Sequence record: PX418922.1
Direction: 5' to 3' (one strand)
DNA from: a phage
DNA length: 64,000 nt
Part shown: in pieces, positions 7,072 to 39,904 of the stretch
How positions within the stretch are numbered: position 1 is the first letter of the stretch
Layout: each line of letters starts with the position of its first letter
The notes under the pieces: generated by a model
What the model was told of the DNA's origin: nothing
The model's input: the letters and a program-made list of their open reading frames with translations, nothing else
The model's database searches: none
Position numbers and translations under genes: made by a program

Positions 7072-7084
7072 TATTTTCTCCTTT

Positions 7085-7143
7085 CTCTTTGCGGGGAACC
7101 ACTCCCCGCCTCATGTGATACATCTTACTCTATTCTAAAACTT
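7085..7143 (-). promoter_or_regulatory. sigma70-like promoter plus 5' leader hairpin driving TerC gene
   Basis: Minus strand reads TTGACA-N16-TAAGAT-GTATCAC-AT-GAGGCGGGGAGTGGTTCCCCGC; same architecture as the island promoters. Confidence 0.5.
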
Positions 7144-7152
7144 TGTCAACAC

Positions 7153-27499: not shown

Positions 27500-27740
27500 T
27501 ATTTTAACTTTTTTCATTTTTAGAACAAAGGTGTCACTTTGTAGCACAGAAATAAGGCTCCTACAGCACCGTAGAGAGCCTGTTATTTTGTCCTATACAA
27601 ACCCTTGTCTTTTTCAGTTTGCATCACTAGGATTCGATCTAAGTAGGTTCCTGAAGGTCTACCAATAAGATTAAAGGTTATCTCAAATTACCACTACCTG
27701 TTATCTCAAAAATTCCTCAAATTATTTAAACTTTTTAAGA

Positions 27741-27920
27741 ATTTACAAAAGTGAAAGTTGAAAACCAAAATTTAAAGTTTAGGAAAATTATCTTAAAATG
27801 TCAGATACAAAACAAAACTCAAAAGTCAAGGAAAATTTTAAAAATTTTGCGCGCCCACAGTATTTAAAGTTTTTTTGCTTTTACAAAAATGAAAGTACAA
27901 AAGCAAAATTTAAAGTTTAC
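27741..27920. repeat. two ~40-bp imperfect direct repeats in an AT-rich intergenic region
   Basis: TTTACAAAAGTGAAAGTTGAAAACCAAAATTTAAAGTTTA (27741-27780) and TTTTACAAAAATGAAAGTACAAAAGCAAAATTTAAAGTTTAC (27879-27920). Confidence 0.6.
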
Positions 27921-27967
27921 AAAAATTTATGCAGATGGGAATGAGAAGAGTTCTCATGTGGAAATGC

Positions 27968-28046
27968 AAATGATAATGATTCGCATTTAGGTTTATAAAT
28001 GAGATTGATTCTTATTTAATAAAGTAAATGATAATCATTCTCATTT
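27968..28046. promoter_or_regulatory. three Fur-box-like palindromic sites
   Basis: AAATGATAATGATTCGCATTT, AAATGAGATTGATTCTTATTT, AAATGATAATCATTCTCATTT; core GATAATCATTCTC is 1 mismatch from the Fur-box 3' 13-mer. Confidence 0.4.
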
Positions 28047-28304
28047 AGAGAATGACGCGCAGGGGCGGTGTTTGTCTCGCGCTCCCGTGTCCCCTCGCCA
28101 TGTACTAAGAATAACAGATCCAGCCAGGAAAGCAAGCGATTATTTTATCTTTACATTTCTTTACAAATATATAGCGCCCAGCCTACCGGCGATCAACCTT
28201 CCAACCAGTGCCCCTGGTATGTTAGCCCCGCCTTTACGCCGTGGGGTGGCGCTTCCTCTTCTGTATGTAAAACAGTATAAGCCCTATCCCTGGGCTTGTC
28301 AAGA

Positions 28305-28571
28305 TTATTTTTTGTTTTCTTGCCAGGTCAGGACACCTAGCCAAAAATGAATATCACCTTTTCCCCAATGTGGTATATTGCTTTCTTTCCCACCTTCACG
28401 CGCCCAGGTAAAACCGCCCGTGTAACTTTGTAATTGATAACTATCCTCGACCTTATAATCTGATAGGTTGAGAACGGTTTCAACCTTTAAGCCCGTTGCG
28501 CTTGCTACCTGGTGCACCGTGCCGCCTTGCCAGCCCAATGAGTGCATAAGATGTAATGTAGTATTTGTCAT
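28305..28571 (-). CDS. hypothetical protein (88 aa), GC-rich
   Basis: ORF track; AAGGG upstream; lies in an otherwise non-coding stretch, so uncertain. Confidence 0.3.
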   Translation of the reverse strand: MTNTTLHLMHSLGWQGGTVHQVASATGLKVETVLNLSDYKVEDSYQLQSYTGGFTWAREGGKESNIPHWGKGDIHFWLGVLTWQENKK

Positions 28572-28680: not shown

Positions 28681-28738
28681 TTGACGTTCGCCAGGTGGCG
28701 GCATAATATTTACCACGTAGCGCGGCAATGGTGCCGCT
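28681..28738 (+). promoter_or_regulatory. island promoter + 5' leader hairpin (P1)
   Basis: TTGACG-N17-TAATAT-TTACCAC-GTAG then hairpin GCGGCA-ATGG-TGCCGC. Confidence 0.55.
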
Positions 28739-28758
28739 CACTATTTGGAGTTAAGATC

Positions 28759-28956
28759 ATGGCAACATTGCACATTGTGGCGAAAGCTGGACAAATCAAC
28801 GTAATAGTAAACGGTTTTACTGAGTTCAGTCATCCCCAGGATGATCATGAAACGGTTTTATCTTTCATTGATTCCCTGTTAGAAATGGGAGTCATTACAG
28901 AAGACCAGCACGCTACAAAATGCAAGCGCGTTAATCAAATTGCAGGGATAGAATAA
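28759..28956 (+). CDS. island small protein (65 aa)
   Basis: ATG after GGAG; ORF-track frame trimmed so the start is downstream of the leader hairpin. Confidence 0.5.
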   Translation: MATLHIVAKAGQINVIVNGFTEFSHPQDDHETVLSFIDSLLEMGVITEDQHATKCKRVNQIAGIE

Positions 28957-28962
28957 AAAGTA

Positions 28963-29017
28963 TTGACAACAAACAACAACCTGATAAGATGTATCACATA
29001 GGGGCGACAAGCGCCCC
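28963..29017 (+). promoter_or_regulatory. island promoter + 5' leader hairpin (P2)
   Basis: TTGACA-N16-TAAGAT-GTATCAC-ATAG then hairpin GGGGCG-ACAA-GCGCCCC. Confidence 0.55.
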
Positions 29018-29041
29018 GCCTAACAGAAGAGAGAAATCATC

Positions 29042-29314
29042 ATGGCATCATATAGCGCAACAATGATCGTAACTGGCACCACTGGTAAACCTATGAGCGG
29101 TGGCGGATCTTTCGCTAATATTAATATTGACGGGCGCTTATCCCTGGACGCAGCGATCACCGTGGCGCGGGAAACATTTAAGAAAGAATGTAAATTCAAT
29201 AAACAAGATTATCTCGGTTTCGCTATTGAAAAAACCGCGCGCTTTGTTGATTATAAAAGCCCGAAAATGGTTGATACTACACTGAAAGCGCAAGATGTAG
29301 CCTTTTTGCTTTAA
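29042..29314 (+). CDS. island small protein (90 aa), Gly-rich N-terminus
   Basis: ORF track; AGAGAGA RBS. Confidence 0.55.
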   Translation: MASYSATMIVTGTTGKPMSGGGSFANINIDGRLSLDAAITVARETFKKECKFNKQDYLGFAIEKTARFVDYKSPKMVDTTLKAQDVAFLL

Positions 29315-29317
29315 GGC

Positions 29318-29371
29318 TTGACATTAACGAATAATTTGTTAATATGTTACATAAAGCGGGAATAGTTCCCG
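29318..29371 (+). promoter_or_regulatory. island promoter + 5' leader hairpin (P3)
   Basis: TTGACA-N16-TAATAT-GTTACAT then hairpin GCGGGAA-TAG-TTCCCGC. Confidence 0.55.
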
Positions 29372-29390
29372 CTATTTGTAAGGTGGTAGA

Positions 29391-29648
29391 ATGTTTTACA
29401 TCAAATTAAAAGGTCACGTGATCGCGTTCAAAGATAACGCTTTTTACAGATTAGCAAAATATGCGTTAATACATCCCCACTATGTTTATATAAGGGGGCG
29501 TGATGAAATAAATATTTTTGATCAAACAACATGCGAAAACATCGAGATCCGCAAGGTTGGCGTACGTGATTATCGTACATCTTTCTACCCTTGCAAGGAT
29601 TCAGCAAGTCTTTTTAAAGTATGCCAATTGTTGAAAAAAGGTGGTTAA
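29391..29648 (+). CDS. island small protein (85 aa)
   Basis: ORF track. Confidence 0.55.
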   Translation: MFYIKLKGHVIAFKDNAFYRLAKYALIHPHYVYIRGRDEINIFDQTTCENIEIRKVGVRDYRTSFYPCKDSASLFKVCQLLKKGG

Positions 29649-29649
29649 T

Positions 29650-30207
29650 ATGGGCCGCGAATATGTGATCCAGTCTTGGGTAAAACATGAAGCAGATGAT
29701 CCGCGCATCATTCCCGATCATCTTATCGATGAATCCACGGGATATAGCGGTGAGCAAATAGGTAACAGATTAGCACGTAGTAACGGCAACGTAAAAGCGC
29801 GTTATGTGCGCCCTGGCTGGCTGGCAAATGGTAACGCTGATTTATCCAGTGCGGAAGATGCGAGCGACGGCGCGAAAGATAATCCTTTGTACAAAATTGA
29901 TCCGGCTTTTCGTGTCCTGGATGAATACCCCAGCAAGATAGCGGCGCTCGATCAGGCCCTGGAAAGTAAGCGCATCACCTGGACCGCTTACAACATGGCA
30001 AAAAACGTACTTGATGGTAAATTGATTCAAGCTGAAAGAAAATTAGCCAAAATTGCAGCCATAACCCAGGAGGAAGACGAGGAGACAACGGAAGAGGAAG
30101 AGTACGAAGAGATCCCGCCGTTGTTGTGTGTTGATGCTTTCCCTGATTATCAGCCGACAGAGGAAGAAAAAAGGATCGCACTAGAAAACTTTGAAAATAG
30201 TCTTTGA
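29650..30207 (+). CDS. island protein with acidic C-terminal tail (185 aa)
   Basis: ATG after AAAGGTGG; C-terminus EEDEETTEEEEYEE; no own promoter. Confidence 0.5.
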   Translation: MGREYVIQSWVKHEADDPRIIPDHLIDESTGYSGEQIGNRLARSNGNVKARYVRPGWLANGNADLSSAEDASDGAKDNPLYKIDPAFRVLDEYPSKIAALDQALESKRITWTAYNMAKNVLDGKLIQAERKLAKIAAITQEEDEETTEEEEYEEIPPLLCVDAFPDYQPTEEEKRIALENFENSL

Positions 30208-30260
30208 CATATCGCCGCCACTGGCATAATATTTACCACGTAGGGCGGCAATGGTGCCGC
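30204..30260 (+). promoter_or_regulatory. island promoter + 5' leader hairpin (P4)
   Basis: TTGACA-N17-ATAATA-TTTACCAC-GTAG then GCGGCA-ATGG-TGCCGC. Confidence 0.55.
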
Positions 30261-30289
30261 TCATAGTGAAATTATGCAAGAGGTTTGCA

Positions 30290-30385
30290 ATGATTAATAA
30301 AGAAAATAGCTTGACGGTTGGAACGATTAACGCTATCATTCTTGCCGTTCCATTTTGGATTGTATTAGCGGCTATTATTTTCTAA
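30290..30385 (+). CDS. hydrophobic micro-protein (31 aa)
   Basis: MINKENSLTVGTINAIILAVPFWIVLAAIIF; only coding capacity downstream of P4. Confidence 0.35.
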   Translation: MINKENSLTVGTINAIILAVPFWIVLAAIIF

Positions 30386-30394
30386 AAAATATTC

Positions 30395-30455
30395 TTGACA
30401 ACGTTTTTTAATCTGATAAGATGTATCACATAGGGCGGCGGAATACTTCCCCGCC
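30395..30455 (+). promoter_or_regulatory. island promoter + 5' leader hairpin (P5)
   Basis: TTGACA-N16-TAAGAT-GTATCAC-ATAG then GGCGG..GGAA-TAC-TTCC.CCGCC. Confidence 0.55.
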
Positions 30456-30476
30456 AAAACAAAAAAGGGTAACACA

Positions 30477-30839
30477 ATGAGCAAGCAAATCAATACTATC
30501 ATGTTTAATCTGGTATCTTTCCGCGATGATATGAAAAATTTACCACGTGAAACGGTTGATATTCATGTTTCAGCTTATCGCGCCCTTATTGATATGTTAC
30601 CGCTAAAACGTGATCAACATGCCGCTAATATGATGCTTAATGCTATGCTTAAAAAGATGATTCAAACGGATCTCACCCTGGCGTATGAGTATCAAGGGCG
30701 CTTATATGCAACTTACAACAAGGCGGTACCTGGTCTGGGAAGTACCGAAGAGTTGCACGGCTTAAACCTGGATCAAAACACTTGGGATAGTATGCGCCGC
30801 GTTATGGTATGGGCCGAAAGCGGTAAAATTTACGAATAA
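30477..30839 (+). CDS. island small protein (120 aa)
   Basis: ORF track. Confidence 0.55.
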   Translation: MSKQINTIMFNLVSFRDDMKNLPRETVDIHVSAYRALIDMLPLKRDQHAANMMLNAMLKKMIQTDLTLAYEYQGRLYATYNKAVPGLGSTEELHGLNLDQNTWDSMRRVMVWAESGKIYE

Positions 30840-30844
30840 AAACG

Positions 30845-30902
30845 GTTGACATTGTTTAAAATTCTAGTATAGTTTACCACATAGGGCGGGAAGTGGTTTC
30901 CC
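30845..30902 (+). promoter_or_regulatory. island promoter + 5' leader hairpin (P6)
   Basis: TTGACA-N16-TATAGT-TTACCAC-ATAG then GCGGGAA-GTGG-TTTCCCGC. Confidence 0.55.
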
Positions 30903-30927
30903 GCCAACAATGAAAAAGGTTATCATC

Positions 30928-31293
30928 ATGGCTATTAATATTAATGTTTCCGCTTATGCTACCCTGGCTAACACGGCTAAAATTGAATTATCCAGCATTG
31001 AGGCGGTGCATATTAGCGCCCGTCGCTGGTTTCAACGGTCCTACGGTAACACATATTTTTCTTTAATGGTTGACGTTGAGATCGGCGGTAAACTGATCGA
31101 GGTGGTTAACGTTCCGTTTCAATATGGCTATGGTGATCATTTTGATACCGTCGCCCTAGAAGAGTTTAGCAAGGTTATCAACCTGGAAGGTAAAGAGTTT
31201 TCAAATTATGCCTACCTTTCCCGTTTTTGCCGTGACAATGGGATCACTGTATACAGTCATGCGAGCGATGTAAAACGTAAAAAAGATTTATAA
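30928..31293 (+). CDS. island small protein (121 aa)
   Basis: Second in-frame ATG chosen (AAAAAGG upstream); the first ATG abuts the hairpin. Confidence 0.5.
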   Translation: MAININVSAYATLANTAKIELSSIEAVHISARRWFQRSYGNTYFSLMVDVEIGGKLIEVVNVPFQYGYGDHFDTVALEEFSKVINLEGKEFSNYAYLSRFCRDNGITVYSHASDVKRKKDL

Positions 31294-31299
31294 AAAGCA

Positions 31300-31360
31300 T
31301 TGACAGCACGAATAAAAAGAGTAAACTGTATTACATAGAGAGCGGGAACACTTCCCGCCT
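31300..31360 (+). promoter_or_regulatory. island promoter + 5' leader hairpin (P7)
   Basis: TTGACA-N17-TAAACT-GTATTAC-ATAG then GCGGGAA-CAC-TTCCCGC. Confidence 0.55.
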
Positions 31361-31382
31361 CACTGAAAAAGAGAGAAAAATC

Positions 31383-31622
31383 ATGGCTAAATCTAAAATG
31401 TACAACGGTCACAAAAACAAAACTCATTGGAATGTAAGCCTTTGGATTAATAACGATGAATCGTTATACCGGTTGGCCCAAGATTTTATTAACGCTAATG
31501 CTAATCGTAATGATGCGGCGCGGGATATGATGCTTTTTCTGGAACAAACTGGACAAGATAAAACGCCAGACGGTTTCAAATATAGCACTACTGCGATCCG
31601 TGCCGCGATGGTTGGAATGTAA
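31383..31622 (+). CDS. island small protein (79 aa)
   Basis: ORF track. Confidence 0.55.
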   Translation: MAKSKMYNGHKNKTHWNVSLWINNDESLYRLAQDFINANANRNDAARDMMLFLEQTGQDKTPDGFKYSTTAIRAAMVGM

Positions 31623-31631
31623 TAAAAACAG

Positions 31632-31689
31632 TTGACAACGTTTAAAATTAGTGTAAGATGTATCACATAGGGCGGGAAGTGGTTTCCCG
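31632..31689 (+). promoter_or_regulatory. island promoter + 5' leader hairpin (P8)
   Basis: TTGACA-N16-TAAGAT-GTATCAC-ATAG then GCGGGAA-GTGG-TTTCCCGC. Confidence 0.55.
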
Positions 31690-31712
31690 CCAAAACAAAG
31701 AGATTAAAGATT

Positions 31713-31940
31713 ATGGCTATCAATATTGTTCGCGTATCCGGCACCGTTGGCACTTCCCAGGTTATTGCAGTTGTAACAAACAAAAAGATTAATGATGTAT
31801 GTGAGATCTTGAATAAGTGGGCTATTGCTAATTTTGGGGAATATGCAAGCGTCGAGTACATCGAATCCTACCAGGTGCCAACCATCAGCCTAACCGATCT
31901 CAACGTTGATCGCCTGTTATGCCTGGATGAATTGATCTGA
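31713..31940 (+). CDS. island small protein (75 aa)
   Basis: ORF track. Confidence 0.55.
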   Translation: MAINIVRVSGTVGTSQVIAVVTNKKINDVCEILNKWAIANFGEYASVEYIESYQVPTISLTDLNVDRLLCLDELI

Positions 31941-31949
31941 AAAAGATTG

Positions 31950-32006
31950 TTGACACCGGAAAGAAAAAGAGTAAACTGTATTACGTAGGGCGGCAATGGT
32001 GCCGCT
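31950..32006 (+). promoter_or_regulatory. island promoter + 5' leader hairpin (P9)
   Basis: TTGACA-N17-TAAACT-GTATTAC-GTAG then GCGGCA-ATGG-TGCCGC. Confidence 0.55.
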
Positions 32007-32030
32007 CACAACAAAAGAGAGATTATTACG

Positions 32031-32243
32031 ATGGCTAATATCCGCACACTGTTAAAAAATGCAAGTCAAGTTTTATTTTCAGATGACGAGTATTTCAATA
32101 AAGACATTACAGGCGTGAAGAATATCAAAGATGTAAAAAGTGTTATGGGTATATATTGCAATGTTAAACGTGTTGGAACGTTCGGTGATAAAGTATTGTA
32201 CCAATCAGGTGATTACAATTTTACTTTGACGATTATTTCATAA
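32031..32243 (+). CDS. island small protein (70 aa)
   Basis: ORF track. Confidence 0.55.
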   Translation: MANIRTLLKNASQVLFSDDEYFNKDITGVKNIKDVKSVMGIYCNVKRVGTFGDKVLYQSGDYNFTLTIIS

Positions 32244-32248
32244 AACGC

Positions 32249-32310
32249 TTGCAATACTGCAAAAATAAAGTAAACTGTATTACATCAAGGCGGCGGAATG
32301 GTCCACCGCC
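32249..32310 (+). promoter_or_regulatory. island promoter + 5' leader hairpin (P10)
   Basis: TTGCAA-N16-TAAACT-GTATTAC-ATCAA then GGCGGCGGA-ATGG-TCCACCGCC. Confidence 0.5.
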
Positions 32311-32334
32311 TAACAAAGAGAAGAGGAAAATATC

Positions 32335-32502
32335 ATGATCACTTTCGCTACCCGTGAAGCCGCTCGCAACGTTGCACGTAAAGTTAACGCCGCCAACCTG
32401 GGCGCTACTTTTAAAGCGCCTGTAAAAGATGAATCAGGAAAATGGATCTTCCCTGGTCTGCGTCACGCTGATAAGCTAGGCACTTTAAGCCTTAAAAAAT
32501 AA
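32335..32502 (+). CDS. island small protein (55 aa)
   Basis: Read manually (MITFATREAARNVARK...); AGAGAAGAGG upstream; shares MITFA N-terminus with the next gene. Confidence 0.4.
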   Translation: MITFATREAARNVARKVNAANLGATFKAPVKDESGKWIFPGLRHADKLGTLSLKK

Positions 32503-32505
32503 TCG

Positions 32506-32540
32506 TTGACTTTTCGTTATAGCGCCCATTATAAGGCGCT
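32506..32540 (+). promoter_or_regulatory. island promoter with variant hairpin (P11)
   Basis: TTGACT then hairpin AGCGCC-CATTATAA-GGCGCT; -10 element unclear. Confidence 0.35.
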
Positions 32541-32576
32541 ATAGAGAAGAGAAACCACTACTAACAAGGAAACATC

Positions 32577-32798
32577 ATGATCACTTTCGCTATTGTCGCC
32601 GTTGTCGCTGGTCAGGTTTACGTAAACGATACATTCACCACAGAAGACAAGGCCGCAGGAGACATAACCGCCGTTTACAATGAGTGCAAGGCAGTAGAAA
32701 GGATGTTAGCGCCTTGTATGTTAATGAGTGAACGCCAGGACGGGATAACAGTGTTTACTAACATTGAAACAGGGTACCAAATGGTAGTAACAAAATAA
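32577..32798 (+). CDS. island small protein (73 aa), hydrophobic N-terminus
   Basis: ORF track. Confidence 0.5.
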   Translation: MITFAIVAVVAGQVYVNDTFTTEDKAAGDITAVYNECKAVERMLAPCMLMSERQDGITVFTNIETGYQMVVTK

Positions 32799-32801
32799 AG
32801 C

Positions 32802-32858
32802 TTGACACGGATTTAATTTTCAGTAAACTGTTACACGTAGGGCGGGAATAGTTCCCGC
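32802..32858 (+). promoter_or_regulatory. island promoter + 5' leader hairpin (P12)
   Basis: TTGACA-N16-TAAACT-GTTACAC-GTAG then GCGGGAA-TAG-TTCCCGC. Confidence 0.55.
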
Positions 32859-32876
32859 TAAAAAGAGAGAAAGACC

Positions 32877-33230
32877 ATGAAAGCACAAAATGCAATTAAA
32901 GAGTACATCCTTGCCGCTATCGATTTTAATGATTACGGTATTACAACCGAAAAAGAGAAGATCGCGGAATTGATGCGCCGTTTTAATTCCGAGTACTGGT
33001 ACCCTGATAATCAATCACGTTTTAATTATAGTATTGTTAAAGCACTTGCATCATGGTTACAAGGCTTGCCATCAGATATTAATATAGCTTTCGAATATTG
33101 GGAAATTGATCGTTTGTTAACATCCTGGGGATACATTAAAGAGAATAGCAGCGATGATAAAATCCAACGAGAAAGGGAAAATTATTGGCTTTATATTGCA
33201 GGCGTGATCCTTGCTTGCTCTTATGAATGA
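32877..33230 (+). CDS. island small protein (117 aa)
   Basis: ORF track. Confidence 0.55.
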   Translation: MKAQNAIKEYILAAIDFNDYGITTEKEKIAELMRRFNSEYWYPDNQSRFNYSIVKALASWLQGLPSDINIAFEYWEIDRLLTSWGYIKENSSDDKIQRERENYWLYIAGVILACSYE

Positions 33231-33236
33231 TAAACC

Positions 33237-33289
33237 TTGACAATTTTACAAAACAGTTTAAATTAATAATATAGCGGCAATGGTGCCGC
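33237..33289 (+). promoter_or_regulatory. island promoter + 5' leader hairpin (P13)
   Basis: TTGACA-N16-TAAATT then GCGGCA-ATGG-TGCCGC. Confidence 0.5.
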
Positions 33290-33309
33290 TCATATAAAGA
33301 GGAAACAAA

Positions 33310-33456
33310 ATGAATACATCTAATCGCGCAGAAAAAATTCAATCTTCCAAGATCCGCAAGGCCTGGAATGAGGAAGTGATCCGCAAAGGCGACAAGCGCA
33401 ATAAAACAAAGCGCGGGAAGAGTGACAAATATAATTGGATGGATTTAGAGGATTAA
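33310..33456 (+). CDS. highly basic micro-protein (48 aa)
   Basis: Read manually (MNTSNRAEKIQSSKIRKAW...KRNKTKRGKSDKYNW); terminator follows. Confidence 0.4.
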   Translation: MNTSNRAEKIQSSKIRKAWNEEVIRKGDKRNKTKRGKSDKYNWMDLED

Positions 33457-33464
33457 CATAACAA

Positions 33465-33490
33465 GGGCGCACCAAGCGCCCTTTCTTTTT
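33465..33490 (+). terminator. intrinsic terminator
   Basis: GGGCGC-ACCAA-GCGCCC then TTTCTTTTT. Confidence 0.65.
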
Positions 33491-33511
33491 ACATGTAGAG
33501 GATAAACAAAA

Positions 33512-33697
33512 ATGACTTTAAACGAGCTTAAAACAGCCTATAACGCAACATTAAAAATAGCCGTGCGTTACCGTGACGAATACGGTTTTATTGCGCAGGG
33601 CGTGATCCTGGGCTTTTCTGACGATGGTTTGATCTATGTTGATGCACATCACAACAAGGTTAAACCGGAAAACGTTATCAGTATAAAATATCTTTAA
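33512..33697 (+). CDS. island small protein (61 aa)
   Basis: ORF track; GAGGATAA upstream. Confidence 0.45.
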   Translation: MTLNELKTAYNATLKIAVRYRDEYGFIAQGVILGFSDDGLIYVDAHHNKVKPENVISIKYL

Positions 33698-33703
33698 AAG
33701 TGG

Positions 33704-33760
33704 TTGACACCATAACCGGACCTGTTAAACTGTATTACATCAGGCGGGGAATAGTTCCCC
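33704..33760 (+). promoter_or_regulatory. island promoter + 5' leader hairpin (P14)
   Basis: TTGACA-N16-TAAACT-GTATTAC-ATCAG then GGGGAA-TAG-TTCCCC. Confidence 0.55.
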
Positions 33761-33783
33761 AACCATACAAAAAGGTAAATATT

Positions 33784-33990
33784 ATGATCACCGCAAAACA
33801 AGAAAAAATCATTATCGACGTTGCAGCCGTTGCCGCTATTGCTATTATTGGATCTTATTATGATACCCGTTTCCCGTCGGCTATGCATGAGATCGCCGCC
33901 GTTGCATCAGTTGGCGTGCTGTTTTACGTTGGTAAACGCTATTTATCACCAATGATTAACAAGCTGACACCGTGGAAAAATAAAGGTTGA
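33784..33990 (+). CDS. island small membrane protein (68 aa)
   Basis: Start moved downstream of hairpin; hydrophobic AAVAAIAIIG segment. Confidence 0.5.
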   Translation: MITAKQEKIIIDVAAVAAIAIIGSYYDTRFPSAMHEIAAVASVGVLFYVGKRYLSPMINKLTPWKNKG

Positions 33991-34041
33991 TCCTGTTTTA
34001 TATTGTGTTATAGTTATCGTGTAGGGCGGCAATGGTGCCGC
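33987..34041 (+). promoter_or_regulatory. island promoter + 5' leader hairpin (P15)
   Basis: TTGATC-N16-TATAGT-TATCGT-GTAG then GCGGCA-ATGG-TGCCGC. Confidence 0.5.
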
Positions 34042-34061
34042 GCCCCTTTGAGGATGCAATC

Positions 34062-34346
34062 ATGAGTAAAGCTAACACCGTGCTAATGTTTTCCCTGATT
34101 AATGATCCCGCTTACTTGTCCAACATGACGCAGGAGGGTAACACATTAACGGCAACATTCACCAATAAGCTTGACCGAGTGATCATCATCTCACTGAAAA
34201 CAGTTAGTAAAGGCTTTTACTCGTTAGCTTATCATTGGATCACTGATACCGATGAGACAAGCCAGGACTATAGCGCCCCTTTCCCTGAATCAATGGCACG
34301 GGAGATCATCGCCGCCGTTGTAAATGATGGTTTGTTTACTGCATAA
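34062..34346 (+). CDS. island small protein (94 aa)
   Basis: Start moved to ATG downstream of hairpin. Confidence 0.5.
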   Translation: MSKANTVLMFSLINDPAYLSNMTQEGNTLTATFTNKLDRVIIISLKTVSKGFYSLAYHWITDTDETSQDYSAPFPESMAREIIAAVVNDGLFTA

Positions 34347-34363
34347 ATAATTTAGAAAAAGGC

Positions 34364-34422
34364 TTGCAATCATTTTGAGATAGTGTATATTTAATTCATA
34401 GGGCGGCGGGAATAGTTCCCAA
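34364..34422 (+). promoter_or_regulatory. island promoter + 5' leader hairpin (P16)
   Basis: TTGCAA-N16-TATATT-TAATTC-ATAG then GGGAA-TAG-TTCCC. Confidence 0.5.
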
Positions 34423-34443
34423 AGCAAACGAGAGGATTACACG

Positions 34444-34563
34444 ATGAGCAAGTACACAGTAGAATACACGGTAGAGAATCCGGCAGTATCCGAAGGTAAA
34501 AAGATGACATTTGCCATCAGTATAATCGCTTTCGTTGTCACTATCTTATCAATCATCTTATAA
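34444..34563 (+). CDS. hydrophobic micro-protein (39 aa)
   Basis: Read manually (MSKYTVEYTVENPAVSEGKKMTFAISIIAFVVTILSIIL). Confidence 0.35.
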   Translation: MSKYTVEYTVENPAVSEGKKMTFAISIIAFVVTILSIIL

Positions 34564-34573
34564 GGTACACACC

Positions 34574-34735
34574 ATGAAAATAACAGACATTATCAAAGAG
34601 ATCGCCCTTGCCGCTGGCGTTGAAGTCGAGGAAGTGATCGCGCTCAATCTTACAGAAAACGATCTGCGCAACTATGAAGCGGAAAGCGTGAAAGCAAGCG
34701 GCGCGGTCCTGGTATATGATCCGGCTAACAAGTAA
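34574..34735 (+). CDS. island small protein (53 aa)
   Basis: Start moved to MKITDII... Confidence 0.4.
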   Translation: MKITDIIKEIALAAGVEVEEVIALNLTENDLRNYEAESVKASGAVLVYDPANK

Positions 34736-34744
34736 GGGGGTAAC

Positions 34745-34855
34745 ATGAATCCGAAAGATATGCAAGCATGGAAAGGGTACGACGATCTAAGCGCCTTGCG
34801 CAATAAGTCAAGCCGTAACTTTAGACGGTTGGAAGCAAAGAAAAAGAAAAAATAG
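34745..34855 (+). CDS. basic micro-protein (36 aa)
   Basis: Read manually (MNPKDMQAWKGYDDLSALRNKSSRNFRRLEAKKKKK); GGGGG upstream. Confidence 0.35.
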   Translation: MNPKDMQAWKGYDDLSALRNKSSRNFRRLEAKKKKK

Positions 34856-34856
34856 T

Positions 34857-34912
34857 TTGACAAGTCCGCCTAGTCTGATAATATGTATCTTGTAGGGCGG
34901 CAATGGTGCCGC
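34857..34912 (+). promoter_or_regulatory. island promoter + 5' leader hairpin (P17)
   Basis: TTGACA-N16-TAATAT-GTATCTT-GTAG then GCGGCA-ATGG-TGCCGC. Confidence 0.55.
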
Positions 34913-34933
34913 TCACAAGAAGAGAGAAAAATC

Positions 34934-35218
34934 ATGAAAATTACAAAAAGCCTAACTAATTATGCAGCACGTCGCGGATTATGTTTAACCGTTGAAAACT
35001 TAGGGAAAGAAGACTTTTTGTGTTTTTGGGAGCTTGAGAATGATTGCGAGTGGATGTTTTCTTATTCTATCTGCGAAGATCAAAACGGTTGTTTGTTAAC
35101 CTGGCGCGGTAATATCTATTTACCGGAAGAAATTAAAGAAGAGTTACCAGGTACGATCATGACAGAGAGACAGCTTAAGGAAGTGATCAATTTTGTAGGG
35201 CAAAACATTAAAAAATAA
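34934..35218 (+). CDS. island small protein (94 aa)
   Basis: Start moved downstream of hairpin; AGAGAGA RBS. Confidence 0.5.
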   Translation: MKITKSLTNYAARRGLCLTVENLGKEDFLCFWELENDCEWMFSYSICEDQNGCLLTWRGNIYLPEEIKEELPGTIMTERQLKEVINFVGQNIKK

Positions 35219-35219
35219 T

Positions 35220-35280
35220 TTGACAGCAGGCAAACAACGTAGTAAAGTTTACCACATAGGGCGGCGGAATGGTCCACCGC
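35220..35280 (+). promoter_or_regulatory. island promoter + 5' leader hairpin (P18)
   Basis: TTGACA-N17-TAAAGT-TTACCAC-ATAG then GGCGGCGGA-ATGG-TCCACCGC. Confidence 0.55.
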
Positions 35281-35303
35281 TCACAACAGAAGAGAAACAA
35301 ATC

Positions 35304-35474
35304 ATGATCCCGACTATGTTTTATGTATCGCGCAAAGGTCACAATATTTTTTGGTCTGAAGATTTAAATGAAGCTATGACGTTTGCCCGTGATCGTGTTG
35401 CTATCGGTGGCGTTAACATCACCGTAACCGATGAAAATGGCATTGAATACTATAACGGCGACGATGAAGAATAA
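35304..35474 (+). CDS. island small protein (56 aa)
   Basis: Start moved to MIPTMFYV... Confidence 0.45.
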   Translation: MIPTMFYVSRKGHNIFWSEDLNEAMTFARDRVAIGGVNITVTDENGIEYYNGDDEE

Positions 35475-35479
35475 TTAAT

Positions 35480-35512
35480 GAGGCGGGGGAGTATTCCCCG
35501 CCGTCAATAAAG
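35480..35512 (+). promoter_or_regulatory. orphan leader-type hairpin with no recognisable promoter
   Basis: GGCGGGGGA-GTA-TTCCCCGCC immediately ahead of the RBS of 35522. Confidence 0.4.
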
Positions 35513-35521
35513 AGGTAAATC

Positions 35522-35791
35522 ATGAAAATATCATTAGACGTTGCAATCAAGGCCATCGAATCCGGTTACACCCTGGTAAAAGATGATAAGGCTAAAACCG
35601 TGCACCACGTTAACAAAGAAACAGGCGAAAGCATGATCACATATAAAGCCGCCTACTTTCTCCAATCAGTAGCAGATCCGCGCGTACAACGCCAGGTTAC
35701 AGCGGCTATTGCTAAAAAATTATGTGCTTTACAGGGCACAAGTTTTAACGAGATCGCCCCGTGTTTTGACTGGTCGAGCTTGAAAAAATAG
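35522..35791 (+). CDS. island small protein (89 aa)
   Basis: ORF track. Confidence 0.5.
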   Translation: MKISLDVAIKAIESGYTLVKDDKAKTVHHVNKETGESMITYKAAYFLQSVADPRVQRQVTAAIAKKLCALQGTSFNEIAPCFDWSSLKK

Positions 35792-35792
35792 T

Positions 35793-35845
35793 TTGACAAC
35801 AATTATAAATCGGGTAGAATGTATTTCGTAGGGCGGGGCAATGGT
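35793..35845 (+). promoter_or_regulatory. island promoter with degenerate hairpin (P19)
   Basis: TTGACA-N16-TAGAAT-GTATTTC-GTAG then GGGCGGGGCAATGGTGCAACGCC. Confidence 0.45.
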
Positions 35846-35872
35846 GCAACGCCTACTAATGAGGGTAAAATC

Positions 35873-35977
35873 ATGTTAGAGAAAATTTTCACGGTTGTAG
35901 TAGTGGGCCTGGTGTTATCGGTTGGAGTGGTTGCAACTATGGCTAACATGATCCTATCTTCCCACGGTATTGGATAA
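35873..35977 (+). CDS. hydrophobic micro-protein (34 aa)
   Basis: Read manually (MLEKIFTVVVVGLVLSVGVVATMANMILSSHGIG). Confidence 0.35.
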   Translation: MLEKIFTVVVVGLVLSVGVVATMANMILSSHGIG

Positions 35978-35987
35978 GGTGAATCAA

Positions 35988-36203
35988 ATGATCACGAATA
36001 AGACAGGTAAAACAGAATTTTTACGCGCCTTGCAGATCGGCAAGCCTGAGATCTGGCATTGCACTAAATCCGCGCATAATGAAATGAAAGATTTTACCGC
36101 TACTTTACAACGTGTTAAAATATCTATCACACAGAAAAAAGCCTTGTTAGTAGTAGAAAACGAGATCCCGCAAACTATTATTATTGTCGAGCGTACAGCA
36201 TGA
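35988..36203 (+). CDS. island small protein (71 aa)
   Basis: Start moved from TTG to the in-frame ATG. Confidence 0.45.
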   Translation: MITNKTGKTEFLRALQIGKPEIWHCTKSAHNEMKDFTATLQRVKISITQKKALLVVENEIPQTIIIVERTA

Positions 36204-36586
36204 AAACAGAAATCATTATTGAAATCATCAACGGTTATAAAGAAGCCTTTATTTTTGCTGAATCAGCAAGGGATCATGAAGGTAATTTTATTGATAACTT
36301 AGACGATTATGATTTTTCTCCTAGCGTGGATCAACGGATCGCCCAGGATGTAACAGCCTTTATTAATGCTAATCTTGCCGCTATCTCTGAGGCAATGAGC
36401 GACGGCGCAACAGCCAACCAGATCGGGAATGATTTACATTTTACCCGTAACGGTCACGGCGTAGGCTTTTGGGATCGCCCTGAAATATACACCACTAACA
36501 CGGCGAACCGCCTAACCAATGCAGCTAAGTTTATGCCGAACGTGTCGGCTTACATTGGTGAAGATAATTTGATTTATATTGAATAA
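36200..36586 (+). CDS. island small protein (128 aa)
   Basis: ORF track; ATGA coupling. Confidence 0.5.
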   Translation: MKTEIIIEIINGYKEAFIFAESARDHEGNFIDNLDDYDFSPSVDQRIAQDVTAFINANLAAISEAMSDGATANQIGNDLHFTRNGHGVGFWDRPEIYTTNTANRLTNAAKFMPNVSAYIGEDNLIYIE

Positions 36587-36592
36587 AAAGTA

Positions 36593-36650
36593 TTGACACC
36601 GATCCCCAATATGGTACTATTTACCACGTAGGCGGGAAATGGTTTCCCGC
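36593..36650 (+). promoter_or_regulatory. island promoter + 5' leader hairpin (P20)
   Basis: TTGACA-N16-TACTAT-TTACCAC-GTAG then GCGGGAA-ATGG-TTTCCCGC. Confidence 0.55.
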
Positions 36651-36674
36651 CAGGTAATCAAAAAGGTAAATACT

Positions 36675-37064
36675 ATGCGCAACCTGGTTTCTGTTTCTAA
36701 CGTTGAAAAATTTCAATCTTTACAGGGTATCGTTAACAACGTAGCGCCTTTTTTAGTCAACGGCTTGATTGCAAAGATGAAAAATAAACATCATGCGGCA
36801 TGGTCTGCTTACTGCTTTGATAATGATGAAAAAGCGGCTGAAATGATGTTAAATATGCTGTTAGACAGTGTAGAATCATCTTTACCGGAAAACATCGCAG
36901 AAGAGATCACCTATCGTTATAATATGGCGATCACTTACCAGGAGGTTGCGCAATTTAATATGATGGACGATGACGAACAACAGGATCAGGAAATGTTTTG
37001 GGAGTATGCTGATCGTCAATCGGCTTTTGATGAAAAATTAGCGATGTATTATAACGAATATTAA
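36675..37064 (+). CDS. island small protein (129 aa)
   Basis: Start moved downstream of hairpin. Confidence 0.5.
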   Translation: MRNLVSVSNVEKFQSLQGIVNNVAPFLVNGLIAKMKNKHHAAWSAYCFDNDEKAAEMMLNMLLDSVESSLPENIAEEITYRYNMAITYQEVAQFNMMDDDEQQDQEMFWEYADRQSAFDEKLAMYYNEY

Positions 37065-37080
37065 TACACGGTAAAAGAAA

Positions 37081-37105
37081 GGGGCGCACTAAGCGCCCTT
37101 TTTTG
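37081..37105 (+). terminator. intrinsic terminator
   Basis: GGGCGC-ACTAA-GCGCCC then TTTTTTG. Confidence 0.65.
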
Positions 37106-37448
37106 TATTCTTTTTTCACGATGGAAACAACACGTAAAGAATAGGCGTAAAGGTGGCGTAAAACCATCTAAAACCGACTGTAACCGCTTAAACAAGGTAG
37201 GAATGATTAATCACCTTGCCAGGATGAAAAAGCCGTTATAAAGCTATCTAGAGCGTTTAAAGCACATAGGAAATAATTTGCTTTTTATCTTGCCTTTTAC
37301 CCTGCTTTTGATTATTATTATGGAACGGGCGGCACCTGGAGACAGGGGAAGATAATCACCGGAAGATCCCGCTATATATTGATAGCTAATACCTATTAAA
37401 CAACAAAACATCAAAGGAATAAACTATCAAATCTTTACAATTCTACCT

Positions 37449-37495
37449 ATTGACACCGGATCGCCCTTATACTAAGATGTATCACGTAGGGCAAA
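37449..37495 (+). promoter_or_regulatory. island promoter without clear hairpin (P21)
   Basis: TTGACA-N17-TAAGAT-GTATCAC-GTAGGGC; hairpin degenerate. Confidence 0.45.
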
Positions 37496-37524
37496 TGATT
37501 TTAAACGGTAAACGAGGAATCACC

Positions 37525-37908
37525 ATGAGCAATATCATCAACCTGGCAGCGACTGTAAACGGTAAAGACTTTAACGGCGCTGTAGACCGTGATCCTATGT
37601 GGTACTTGTCAGTGTTTAAAGGCGATCTGGTTGAAGTTAGAACAACCGAAGGGTATAGCGATGATTATAAATGCGAGATTCATTTACATAATTGGTACAC
37701 GGGTAAAACTTATGCGCTGAATCACGCGTTTATCGGAAAAATCGAATATCGTGAGATGATCGACGAAGAAACGGGGCAAGATTTTAGCGAAAACGTTTAT
37801 ATTCGTTCCGAGACATTAGCCGAACGTTTGATCGAGAAAATGAAAGCAAAAAATAAAATTAATTTATCTCATTGGATTGATATAACAAACGATCCAGCTT
37901 ATCAGTAA
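37525..37908 (+). CDS. island small protein (127 aa)
   Basis: Start moved to MSNIINLAAT... Confidence 0.5.
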   Translation: MSNIINLAATVNGKDFNGAVDRDPMWYLSVFKGDLVEVRTTEGYSDDYKCEIHLHNWYTGKTYALNHAFIGKIEYREMIDEETGQDFSENVYIRSETLAERLIEKMKAKNKINLSHWIDITNDPAYQ

Positions 37909-37924
37909 ATAACATTTCATACCA

Positions 37925-37950
37925 GGGCGCACAAAGCGCCCTTTCTTTTT
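37925..37950 (+). terminator. intrinsic terminator closing the island
   Basis: GGGCGC-ACAAA-GCGCCC then TTTCTTTTT. Confidence 0.65.
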
Positions 37951-39529
37951 GCCCGAACAATGTTGATAGATTCCGCCTATGGAAAACCGACACAGAACAA
38001 AACTGAATAAATAGCGGTATCAAGCTAATCAACCATTAAATGAATAACCATACCTCCCAGGGTAACAGGCTGTTAGAGAGCCATTTAAAGCGGTTAAAAT
38101 CGATCAACAACCAACAACAAACCATCAAAAACACCCTTTTACCTCCTTTCTAGTGCAATGATAACCATTATCATCTATCCATGTTTATCTATACAATATA
38201 AGTGCATAATTATAATGTTGATAATAGTTCGCAACAACTAACCAACAAACAACATAAAACAATAAGCAAACTAATCATAATCAAAGGAATAATAGCAAGA
38301 TGATTGATAACAACAAACAATCAAACCATGATGAATACTAAGCAAGATAACGATAACACGACAAAACAACCAACTAACGAACAATAACAAACGAAACCAT
38401 TAAAATAATAACTATTGCCATAATAGTGACTAAATGAAATCATTACAAAACGAATCATTCACAGAGTCATCATTAGCACGCTATGCCGGACACATAGCGA
38501 GCTAATAATAAGCCAACTACACCCCAACAATCATAACCATCGGTGATGGTTATTTCTTGTTACTGCGTAGCTTGCAATAATTGCAAGCGTAATGACGCTT
38601 ACACTTATTGCGCTGGCTTATTATTAGCATTATATGTAATTACCAAGATCATAACATTAGCGCAATAACAATAATCATTGTGGTAATTACGTAAGGAAAC
38701 AATTAGCATGGCAATAATTATGGGGCAATGGGAGGATGATTATCATCATTCCGATACATTGCACACTATGCACATAATAGAATAAAAAGCAATAATTTTG
38801 GGGGCGAAATGTTACCGCCACAGGCGGGAATGTTGAGCACTAAGAAAAGAGATAAACCTTAATCATGGGGGCGTAAATATCCGCAGGATTGCCAACGGCG
38901 ATCCGGTAGGATGTTGAGCATCTTCTCTTAAACGTAAATAAAATCAGAAAATTCTTGATTTATTTTAGTTTTTATGTTAATAAACGTTTAAATAATAATC
39001 ATTCTCATATAAATAATAGTCTGCTTGTCATGAGCGGGATTAGTTGACAATGTTCCGTCATATGATGAAGTTGCCAACCTATTGATAAATAAGTGTTTGT
39101 GTGATTTATAATCAAGTGGCCCACCTTGTCGCTACGTTGGCATAAGCCTTGCATAAGTCATTGAATACGAATGATAATTATTCTCATTCGCATGATATTT
39201 GGGAATTGTCGCTGCGTGGACCTGACGGCCCGAAAATTCGCGTTAAGCACTTCTTACGTATGCGCCATGATTTTTGCCATATGATATTGATTCTATTAGA
39301 TATTCTTGCCATGATTGCCATGAAACAGGGTGTCCCGAAATAATCTTTCCCCGTAGATATTTTGGGTTACTTTTTATACAAGAGTGGGGTGTCAAAAATA
39401 ATCGGTATATATGGGATAATTGATAGGAATCCCCTATGATAATTCGATTGTAATTCCCTGAGATTGATCGTATGATGTTGGTGATTGATGATTGCCATGA
39501 AAGATGGCTAACGATGAGAGGAGATTATC
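37951..39529. other. 1.6-kb non-coding, repeat-rich region with strand-skewed A+C content
   Basis: No ORF of 60 aa or more; CAACAA/ACAAAC low-complexity runs; palindromes; Fur-box-like sites at 38991-39010 and 39169-39189. Confidence 0.5.
38570..38588. repeat. 19-bp palindrome
   Basis: GCTTGCAAT-A-ATTGCAAGC, 9-bp arms. Confidence 0.6.
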
Positions 39530-39904
39530 ATGCAAGAGAGTAAAAATATTCCGTTGAGCAGTGCAGCATTGCTTCGCTTCTATAAAGCATGGATTGCCAA
39601 CTATCCTGCAATGAATCGCACAACGAGTGGCTTATGTGGTTGTCTGGTGGATTATGTAGATGATTTTGTTGGTGAGACAACTAGAGAAGAAGATAGAAGA
39701 TGGCGGGATAGTTTGTTGGACCGTTTGAAATATGAAATGAGGAGACAATTTACATGTGCAGGGCTGGACTATAATCTTCCGTTCAATGCAGATTGCATGG
39801 ATTACCTTTCAGAGTGTATAAACTTGGCGTGTCATACCAACACGTTACGTCTTCAGTGGGTGAAAGACAGAATTGAAGATGCAAATAATGTTTGCATTGA
39901 ATAA
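39530..39904 (+). CDS. hypothetical protein, paralog family A copy 1
   Basis: Shares Y..W......GLC.CL....PF.....WVKD pattern with 44137, 49930, 51236. Confidence 0.5.
   Translation: MQESKNIPLSSAALLRFYKAWIANYPAMNRTTSGLCGCLVDYVDDFVGETTREEDRRWRDSLLDRLKYEMRRQFTCAGLDYNLPFNADCMDYLSECINLACHTNTLRLQWVKDRIEDANNVCIE

Follow-up and report, generated by a model that had tools for sequence, protein, structure and literature searches.

The promoter-early stem-loop (PeSL) cassettes of T4-type phages (Arbiol et al. 2010, PMC2839356; Comeau et al. 2014, PMC4122927) are the closest known system to the repeated gene module considered here. The stem-loop of a PeSL lies upstream of, within, or just before the promoter start (five classes), and has been described as a terminator (PMC2839356). 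Excision of mini-circles through recombination of adjacent copies is also ascribed to PeSLs. A second point of reference is the host-takeover module of phage SPO1 (Stewart et al. 1998), for which a later summary gives about 12 operons with strong ribosome-binding sites (RBSs) in the terminal redundancy, and several genes that were shown to shut off host functions (PMC6873191). Here, we analyze a 64-kb stretch of sequence record PX418922.1 (the window, with positions counted from its first letter), which derives from a Phapecoctavirus-type coliphage of the phAPEC8/phi92 group (Stephanstirmvirinae) and contains an island of 28 very small genes at 28.68-37.94 kb. Most of these genes are preceded by a copy of one promoter-plus-hairpin module. 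Literature searches turned up no account of the module for these phages, with prior mention possible in the papers on phi92, phAPEC8 and PVP-SE1.

The explanation that we favor, with a probability of roughly 0.6, is that the island is a hyperplastic early-gene region made of portable PeSL-like cassettes, with leader hairpins that would stabilize the messages and repeats that would enable shuffling.

The island and its repeated module

The island contains 28 open reading frames (ORFs; g01 to g28) of 31-185 aa, all on the plus strand between 28759 and 37908, and the set agrees with the gene annotation of phage anhysbys and others. Comparison with eight relatives yields 2,328 substitutions, 63% of them at codon position 3, which is coding-like evolution and bears out the original prediction of about 28 micro-genes in this size range. 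The eight ORFs of 56 aa or less give 60%, while g18, g19 and g20 individually have differences too few or too even for a judgment by codon position. The spacers within the island are mostly ~71-97 nt long, as against ~0-15 nt in the flanking gene blocks of the anhysbys annotation, where neighboring genes abut or overlap; the contrast drawn earlier with operon-like packing elsewhere is thus a real one.

A TTGACA-like -35 box, a 16/17-nt spacer and a TAnnnT -10 box lie upstream of 20 of the 28 ORFs. The -35 box is a perfect TTGACA in 16 of these 20 and TTGACG, TTGCAA (twice) or TTGATC in the rest, and g12 adds a 21st, weaker case in which TTGACT is paired with a damaged -10. The seven ORFs g04, g15, g19, g20, g23, g25 and g26 have no promoter of their own, so that the proposal of a promoter for nearly every gene is correct for 20 ORFs, marginal for g12 and wrong for these seven. 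With a strict match defined as 10 of 12 positions or better, the plus strand carries 17 promoters (16 of them intergenic), compared to 2.2 +/- 1.6 in dinucleotide shuffles; a looser scan finds 68, compared to 34.7 +/- 6.1.

The promoters are copies of one module, about 21 in number, whose conservation extends well beyond the hexamers. Each copy begins with the stop codon of the previous gene, which sometimes overlaps the -35 box (the TGA of g04 overlaps that of g05), followed by an A-rich tract, TTGACA, the freely varying 16/17-nt spacer and TAnnnT. Letters resembling (G/T)TAYCAC come next, and in 16 of 20 copies they include a pyrimidine-purine step at nucleotides 7-8 past the -10. The module then continues with TAG, a GC hairpin of 7-10 bp, an unpaired A/G-rich leader and the ATG of the first of one to three very small ORFs; the only Shine-Dalgarno-like element in the leaders is a weak AGAGA or AAGG. 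Considering the usual spacing from the -10 and the preference for a pyrimidine-purine step, we infer that transcription starts at the conserved purine, and the RNA would therefore begin R-U-A-G and run directly into the hairpin. Confidence in this architecture, as distinct from the start site, is high.

A covariance model built from six module copies recovers 17 in the window, all on the plus strand between 28.7 and 36.7 kb, and 140 over 10 loci. A generic promoter-plus-hairpin scan adds one further full copy, on the minus strand at 7149; the other promoters across the window are mostly without a hairpin. At three places, g07 (30928-30942), g09 (31713-31727) and an extra gene of phage tuntematon (L003, 5249-5263), the genes share the start ATGGCTAT(T/C)A... 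(M-A-I-...), and the homology between modules therefore extends into the first codons of unrelated genes.

The leader hairpin

A GC hairpin of -7.8 to -17.5 kcal/mol stands 3' of the promoter in 19 of the 20 modules, as had been predicted, and g28 is the sole promoter module without one. In these 19, the stem-loop starts at about +1/+5 of the predicted transcript and ends at about +20/+29, leaving 0-4 unpaired nucleotides at the predicted 5' end in 18 of the 20 modules, and the RBS is unpaired in minimum free energy folds of the leaders. Hairpins inside the promoter itself are accessory only, being found in g01, g05, g12 and a leftward promoter at 28302 on the minus strand (see below).

Is the structure itself conserved? 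Among the copies in the window, 93.4% of the cells are paired, five of the eight pairs show double changes, and one apical pair is CG in eight copies and GC in seven. With 82 distinct copies from ten loci, 94.2% are paired and six of the eight pairs show double changes, one pair being CG in 43, GC in 22 and AU in three. No shuffle reached the observed paired fraction or covariation score, and slid controls collapse. These figures are supportive rather than proof, since the copies share descent and the model itself guided their alignment. Orthologous sites tell a similar story: at the g06 orthologue of FV3 (a Vequintavirus), promoter and leader hairpin are kept with an unrelated stem, GGGGCAA...TTGCCCC; the SSBI34 leader stem is GGGCGAC...GTCGCCC; and the promoter-less leader of g23 has its hairpin preserved by compensatory changes in three phages.

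Two exact loop inversions distinguish the hairpins of different phages. The g12 module (32506-32543) of four relatives (L001-L004) has the hairpin TATAGCGCC-TTATAATG-GGCGCTATA, with a loop that carries a perfect -10, TATAAT, 16 nt past TTGACT. The loop in the window is the exact reverse complement, CATTATAA, and the -10 is destroyed; such a flip could act as a promoter switch. The g10-like module of SKA64 shows a similar flip, CACTATTG versus CAATAGTG.

The individual features are as follows.

7068-7149 (-): the sole full module copy outside the island in the window, TTGACA-N16-TAAGAT-GTATCACATGA-GGCGGGGAGTGGTTCCCCGC-RBS-ATG
28681-28956 (+): g01; promoter TTGACG-N17-TAATAT 28681-28709, with a small additional hairpin between -35 and -10; hairpin ~28717-28744; ORF 28759-28956, 65 aa, PHROG 23268 (unknown function)
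28963-29314 (+): g02; promoter TTGACA-N16-TAAGAT 28963-28990; hairpin 29001-29017; ORF 29042-29314, 90 aa
29318-30207 (+): g03 and g04; promoter 29318-29345; hairpin 29355-29373; ORFs 29391-29648 (85 aa) and 29650-30207 (185 aa, acidic C-terminus), coupled by a 1-nt spacer
30204-30385 (+): g05; promoter 30204-30232; hairpin 30243-30262; ORF 30290-30385, 31 aa, hydrophobic
30395-30839 (+): g06; promoter 30395-30422; hairpin 30434-30455; ORF 30477-30839, 120 aa
30846-31293 (+): g07; promoter TTGACA-N16-TATAGT 30846-30873; hairpin 30885-30905; ORF 30928-31293, 121 aa
31300-31622 (+): g08; promoter 31300-31327; hairpin 31338-31361; ORF 31383-31622, 79 aa, Pfam DUF7249
31632-31940 (+): g09; promoter 31632-31659; hairpin 31671-31691; ORF 31713-31940, 75 aa
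31950-32243 (+): g10; promoter 31950-31977; hairpin 31985-32009; ORF 32031-32243, 70 aa, two alleles among relatives
32249-32502 (+): g11; promoter TTGCAA-N16-TAAACT 32249-32276; hairpin 32288-32311; ORF 32335-32502, 55 aa
32506-32798 (+): g12; -35 TTGACT 32506-32511; hairpin 32518-32543; ORF 32577-32798, 73 aa
32802-33230 (+): g13; promoter 32802-32829; hairpin 32841-32859; ORF 32877-33230, 117 aa
33237-33456 (+): g14; promoter 33237-33264; hairpin 33273-33290; ORF 33310-33456, 48 aa, basic, Pfam Phage_1_1
33463-33483: terminator T1, scoring on both strands; AAGGGCGCACCAAGCGCCCTT, then a T-run
33512-33697 (+): g15; 61 aa, without its own promoter, starting 29 nt past T1
33704-33990 (+): g16; promoter 33704-33731; hairpin 33746-33760; ORF 33784-33990, 68 aa, hydrophobic
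33987-34346 (+): g17; promoter TTGATC-N16-TATAGT 33987-34014; hairpin 34024-34044; ORF 34062-34346, 94 aa
34364-34855 (+): g18 to g20; promoter TTGCAA-N16-TATATT 34364-34391; weaker hairpin 34403-34425; ORFs 34444-34563 (g18, 39 aa, membrane), 34574-34735 (g19, 53 aa) and 34745-34855 (g20, 36 aa, basic), all + with spacers of 9-10 nt
34857-35218 (+): g21; promoter 34857-34884; hairpin 34892-34916; ORF 34934-35218, 94 aa
35220-35474 (+): g22; promoter 35220-35248; hairpin 35259-35282; ORF 35304-35474, 56 aa
35475-35791 (+): g23; hairpin-only leader with no promoter, hairpin 35482-35502; ORF 35522-35791, 89 aa
35793-36586 (+): g24 to g26; promoter TTGACA-N16-TAGAAT 35793-35820; hairpin 35828-35856; ORFs 35873-35977 (g24, 34 aa, membrane), 35988-36203 (g25, 71 aa) and 36200-36586 (g26, 128 aa, motif FTRNGHGVGFWDR), all +
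36593-37064 (+): g27; promoter 36593-36620; hairpin 36631-36651; ORF 36675-37064, 129 aa
37076-37104 (+): terminator T2; 12-bp stem, then a T-run
37450-37908 (+): g28; chimeric module with promoter 37450-37478 and a hairpin-less leader; ORF 37525-37908, 127 aa, Pfam Phage_30_8
37924-37942 (+): terminator T3, the end of the island

Mosaic content and module junctions

The 9.3-kb region has matches in 263 phage records, the top ones at 95-97% identity and all of them ~150-kb Phapecoctavirus genomes. Its content is variable among phages, since no single record covers more than 93% of it. Among five Phapecoctavirus genomes and phi92, gene content is largely syntenic yet mosaic: g27 is missing from all five close relatives and 98-100% identical in Justusliebigvirus phages, the presence of g23, g25 and g28 varies, and tuntematon, TSP7_1 and SKA64 carry additional cassettes, the first two having one inserted at the position of g07. 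The g23 gene is missing or replaced in TSP7_1 and tuntematon, with its leader hairpin retained through compensatory changes. The g02 module (~60 nt identical) sits before a different gene in tuntematon.

Sequence identity is equally patchy. SKA64 is 99% identical in g07, 70-77% in g08-g10 and 100% in g11. The comparison with phi92 finds patches of 90-97% identity beside genes at 36-70%, with g02, g07, g11, g21, g24 and g28 at 90-97% and g03, g04, g13 and g15 at 36-66%. Phage alia, which belongs to a different genus, is 92-93% identical over the right third of the island (34884-37454) compared to 72-88% in the left part, and its cassette order differs, because the g05 cassette sits elsewhere there.

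Two chimeric junctions could be resolved to the nucleotide. The alia spacer between the g02-like and g06-like genes joins the promoter half of the g03 module of the window to the leader half of the g06 module. The g28 module of the window, in turn, consists of the promoter of phi92 gp247 (~55 nt identical, up to CACGTA) and a g28-type leader, and from this chimera it appears that a gp247-like gene was lost by a crossover of two modules at the start site or hairpin base. A census of junctions against seven relatives found 37 distinct homology breaks. Modules, at 19% of the DNA, hold 20 of them (p = 2e-6), and another nine are no more than 10 nt away from a stop codon, in most cases one that directly precedes a module. 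We have moderate confidence, from these sequence comparisons, that the repeats serve as sites of shuffling and exchange.

How widespread are the modules? A BLAST search with the g09 module finds 139 phage records, almost all Stephanstirmvirinae, with partial matches in Vequintavirinae. There are about 12 copies in gp225-gp248 of phi92 and several in FV3 and SSBI34, and modules are kept at orthologous positions in other genera (phi92, alia and FV3). FV3 also has a second repeated promoter class (L008, 4464-4543, 5085-5172, 5419-5494 and 8804-8888), in which the -35, TTGACT, lies in a hairpin loop (GGCCTTGACTCCAGGGCC). Relatives with the same genes but no modules, a finding that would have spoken against the original prediction, were not seen; the relatives keep their modules, while cassette content and order vary between them. 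With near-consensus promoters and conserved modules, the predicted array of self-contained, independently promoted cassettes is well supported by the sequence.

A proposed explanation and its difficulties

In the explanation that we favor, unmodified host RNA polymerase would fire all of the promoters on entry of the DNA, and every message would start with a stem-loop 0-4 nt from its 5' end. E. coli mRNAs provide the analogy: work ascribed to Emory (1992), Bouvet and Belasco (1992) and Arnold (1998) is said to have found that 5'-terminal stem-loops, as in the ompA and papA leaders, stabilize the message. In the same fashion, the island stem-loop would shield the mRNA from 5'-end-dependent decay by RppH/RNase E, and it would keep the RBS unpaired regardless of the upstream sequence. 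Read-through should occur, given that there are just three terminators. Direct repeats of ~60-85 nt, 20-odd in number, would at the same time supply homology between otherwise unrelated genes; by virtue of that homology, phages could lose or gain cassettes, change their order and trade them with one another, as has been proposed for the PeSLs of T4-type phages. That the leader hairpin protects each message is a tentative part of this proposal, to which we give somewhat less than even odds.

Several observations weigh against this explanation. First, many leaders would retain 3-4 unpaired nucleotides (RUAG) under the predicted start, which is close to the number beyond which 5' protection should weaken. 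Second, the promoter-less g23 leader also has the hairpin, and a position at the extreme 5' end is therefore not obligatory. Third, the strand asymmetry expected of an RNA structure is weak: there are 26 G.U pairs on the plus strand compared to 15 on the folded complement, in related sequences. The plus strand is the more stable in 27 as against 14 of 55 hairpins (p = 0.03, again in related sequences), and one stem pair is G.U in 29 of 82 copies. Moreover, the two exact loop inversions show that the hairpins also act as inverted repeats in DNA. With regard to shuffling, modules account for 20 of the 23 non-coding junctions compared to an expected 73%, and since this non-coding enrichment is not significant, the census cannot separate module-mediated exchange from the survival of intact genes. 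Some rearrangements also avoid the modules: a module and gene present between g19 and g20 in relatives was lost from stop codon to stop codon, the g25 deletion lies away from modules, and the breakpoint between the g10 alleles is in mid-gene.

Alternative explanations

Perhaps the element RUAG-GGCGG...CCGCC is instead a site where a phage or host factor binds to control all of the early genes at once. Such a factor might be a repressor or nuclease that binds RNA, an N/nut-type antiterminator, or a shut-off protein that binds the DNA at +1 to +25. Conservation does exceed what pairing needs, in that UAG and the GGCGG/CCGCY base of the helix are nearly invariant and the loops cluster at AAUGG/AAUAG/AAGUGG, and the element is both retained in the promoter-less g23 leader and present in two phage subfamilies. 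However, the apical stem and loop are free to vary, with compensatory and length changes, and the FV3 and SSBI34 orthologues have unrelated stems. The conservation may also stem from repeated gene conversion among the copies, and no candidate regulator was identified; we regard a common binding site as rather unlikely.

Another possibility is that the hairpins are terminators or attenuators: by stopping or damping transcription that enters from the preceding cassette, they would make each gene depend on its own promoter alone. Damping would make sense for a series of about 20 strong promoters with only three canonical terminators, and in RB49/phi1 a PeSL stem-loop placed before lacZ cut expression like a strong terminator (PMC2839356). 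The island hairpins, however, lie 3' of their own promoters, and a terminator there would therefore stop the gene's own transcript too. In addition, they are flanked on the 3' side by A-rich sequence (AAAACAAAG, TCACAAC) with no U-tract, and a terminator scan called none of the leader hairpins, yet it found three real terminators (T1 to T3), which form one separate sequence family with T-runs. The leader hairpins are thereby ruled out as canonical intrinsic terminators, and the many strong intrinsic terminators of the original prediction come down to these three. The record of phage ASO2A (MZ726793, locus L006) does label the same hairpins as rho-independent terminators, mostly by WebGeSTer and in two cases also by TransTermHP, and this places them between each promoter and its own gene. 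Those calls are automatic and not discussed in the ASO2A paper, which merely counts them, and they are probably an annotation artifact that inflates the terminator count for this phage group. An attenuator role for the leader hairpins therefore seems improbable to us.

A more speculative suggestion, which we likewise consider doubtful, is that the modules are working sites of a dedicated system, either an integron-like mobilization of cassettes or a common RNA operator. In the first form, circles excised and re-inserted at the stem-loop would move promoter-bearing genes between phage genera; in the second, a single phage factor would act on all early transcripts together at the early-to-middle switch, by stabilizing, silencing or destroying them. 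Either form is compatible with the crossovers at the hairpin base and with the exact loop inversions, including the one that turns a -10 on or off.

Finally, it is very improbable that the repeats are functionless traces of a recent serial duplication of one promoter region with the hairpin as a passenger. In favor of this view, one and the same hairpin occurs in six copies, and ~60 nt are identical between some modules 5.7 kb apart. Conservation nevertheless follows a pattern, in that the -35, -10, start-site step, helix and RBS are maintained but the -35/-10 spacer varies freely. Moreover, compensatory changes occur, and the arrangement persists at orthologous sites across genera despite diverged sequence.

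Products of the island

PHROGs matches 26 of the 28 products, all to families of unknown function except for g18, a generic "membrane protein". Pfam assigns g14 to the T7 gp1.1 family (Phage_1_1), g28 to the T4 gp30.8 family (Phage_30_8) and g08 to DUF7249. The earlier statement that no product has a recognizable motif was therefore nearly right, in that these three Pfam families are all of unknown function. T7 gene 1.1 and T4 gene 30.8 both belong to the early region of their respective phages, and the two families fit an early, widely shared pool of small genes. A sub-threshold Pfam match of g23 to Aegyptin_C was discounted. The hydrophobic (g05, g16, g18 and g24) and basic (g14 and g20) peptides noted earlier are indeed present.

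Sequence searches of the PDB with g04, g26, g27 and g28 gave no match, and all homologues retrieved for g08 and g26 were labeled "hypothetical protein". The AlphaFold model of g26, which has an invariant FTRNGHGVGFWDR motif, reaches a predicted local distance difference test score (pLDDT) of 96; it has no PDB match, and its BFVD matches are uncharacterized phage proteins only, with the same fold in uncharacterized proteins of Xanthomonas, Burkholderia (BcepSauron) and Synechococcus phages. The g08 model (pLDDT 84) has no structural match, and no paralogy was found among the 28 products. It is plausible, as first suggested, that the products are host-takeover or anti-defense factors.

Surroundings of the island

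The homologous island of phi92 terminates in the same gp30.8-like gene, ~1.1 kb before the annotated right terminal repeat, and the island described here is therefore probably located at a physical end of the virion DNA, next to the right terminal repeat. Positions 39141-39445 of the window match the phi92 terminal repeat region weakly, at 69-74%. Beyond the island, 37950-39560 comprises ~1.6 kb without genes that is 94-98% conserved in relatives and includes long A/C-rich, G-poor tracts (~38100-38500, caacaaccaacaacaaacc...); this is probably the site of the physical genome ends.

The left border, 27700-28320, is a stretch without annotation in relatives. It carries a leftward consensus promoter, TTGACA-N17-TATACT (28302 to 28274, minus strand), with its own hairpin between -35 and -10, followed by a GC-rich leader in which the motif GCGCCACCCCACGGCGTAAAGGCGGGG is conserved in phi92 and SSBI34. 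The predicted transcript enters three palindromic repeats with 29-nt spacing (TAAATGAGAnTGATTCTCATTTA, 27940-28048) and AT-rich direct repeats (27718-27927). The region resembles a replication origin or a cluster of operators.

Within the island, 37065-37524 is a 460-nt non-coding gap, running from terminator T2 to the g28 promoter and 92% conserved in alia, in which no convincing ORF or promoter was seen. Far from the island, the minus strand from 57724 to ~57640 has a consensus promoter, TTGACA-N18-TATAGT, with a terminator-like hairpin and U-tract (AAAGCCTCCTGTTTCAGGGGGCTTTTCTTTT) within ~15 nt, right before a gene; this unit may be an attenuator. A tRNA scan and an Rfam scan of the entire 64-kb window gave no match.

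Implications

If the explanation that we favor is confirmed, promoter-plus-stem-loop cassettes would be a general means of assembling and exchanging early accessory genes among large lytic phages other than the T4 group, in a phage group that is widely collected for therapy. About 20 natural variants of a compact module (strong promoter, 5' hairpin and weak RBS) offer a test set for the effect of a stem-loop on mRNA life and translation. The ~28 small genes, exchanged between genera, are obvious candidates for host-takeover and anti-defense screens, and the public annotation of the leader hairpins as terminators would be corrected.

Comparison with known systems

The leader hairpins resemble intrinsic terminators in being GC-rich and of similar size, but they differ in lacking a 3' U-tract and in lying between a promoter and its own gene. 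The ompA and papA leaders have a stable hairpin a few nucleotides from the 5' end, followed by a single-stranded leader and RBS, and the island leaders would have the same arrangement under the predicted start. However, each of those leaders belongs to one cellular mRNA, for which 5' ends were mapped and half-lives measured, while the island element is a 20-fold repeat with predicted 5' ends and, in many copies, 3-4 unpaired nucleotides.

Like the island, the SPO1 module packs very small genes (~24-28 of them) into ~9-12 kb at a genome end, which for the island is a probable one, and has many strong promoters for the host sigma factor, along with expression at the start of infection, which was shown for SPO1 and is predicted for the island. 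The island differs in its weak RBSs (AGAGA type) and common leader hairpin, and, judging by the phi92 homology, it lies beside the terminal repeat, while the SPO1 module is inside the terminal redundancy. The SPO1 module may nevertheless be the nearest functional analogue for what the island proteins do.

The PeSLs share the most features with the island. Both have a composite intergenic motif with the same order of parts, namely an upstream stop codon in an AT-rich tract, a near-consensus sigma-70 promoter, a stem-loop, a Shine-Dalgarno sequence and a start codon. In both, many copies of the motif populate a hyperplastic region of small ORFans, and they occur where close relatives differ by an insertion, deletion or replacement, some of the copies at the junctions being chimeric. 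Indeed, g01, g05, g12, the leftward 28302 promoter and the four-copy class of FV3 have a stem-loop within the promoter, like the commonest RB49 classes. The differences are that the island stem-loop lies in the mRNA leader, past the predicted start, in 19 of 20 copies; that the island modules have a conserved start-site and helix-base sequence, RUAG-GGCGG; and that they belong to Stephanstirmvirinae and Vequintavirinae rather than to T4-like myoviruses.

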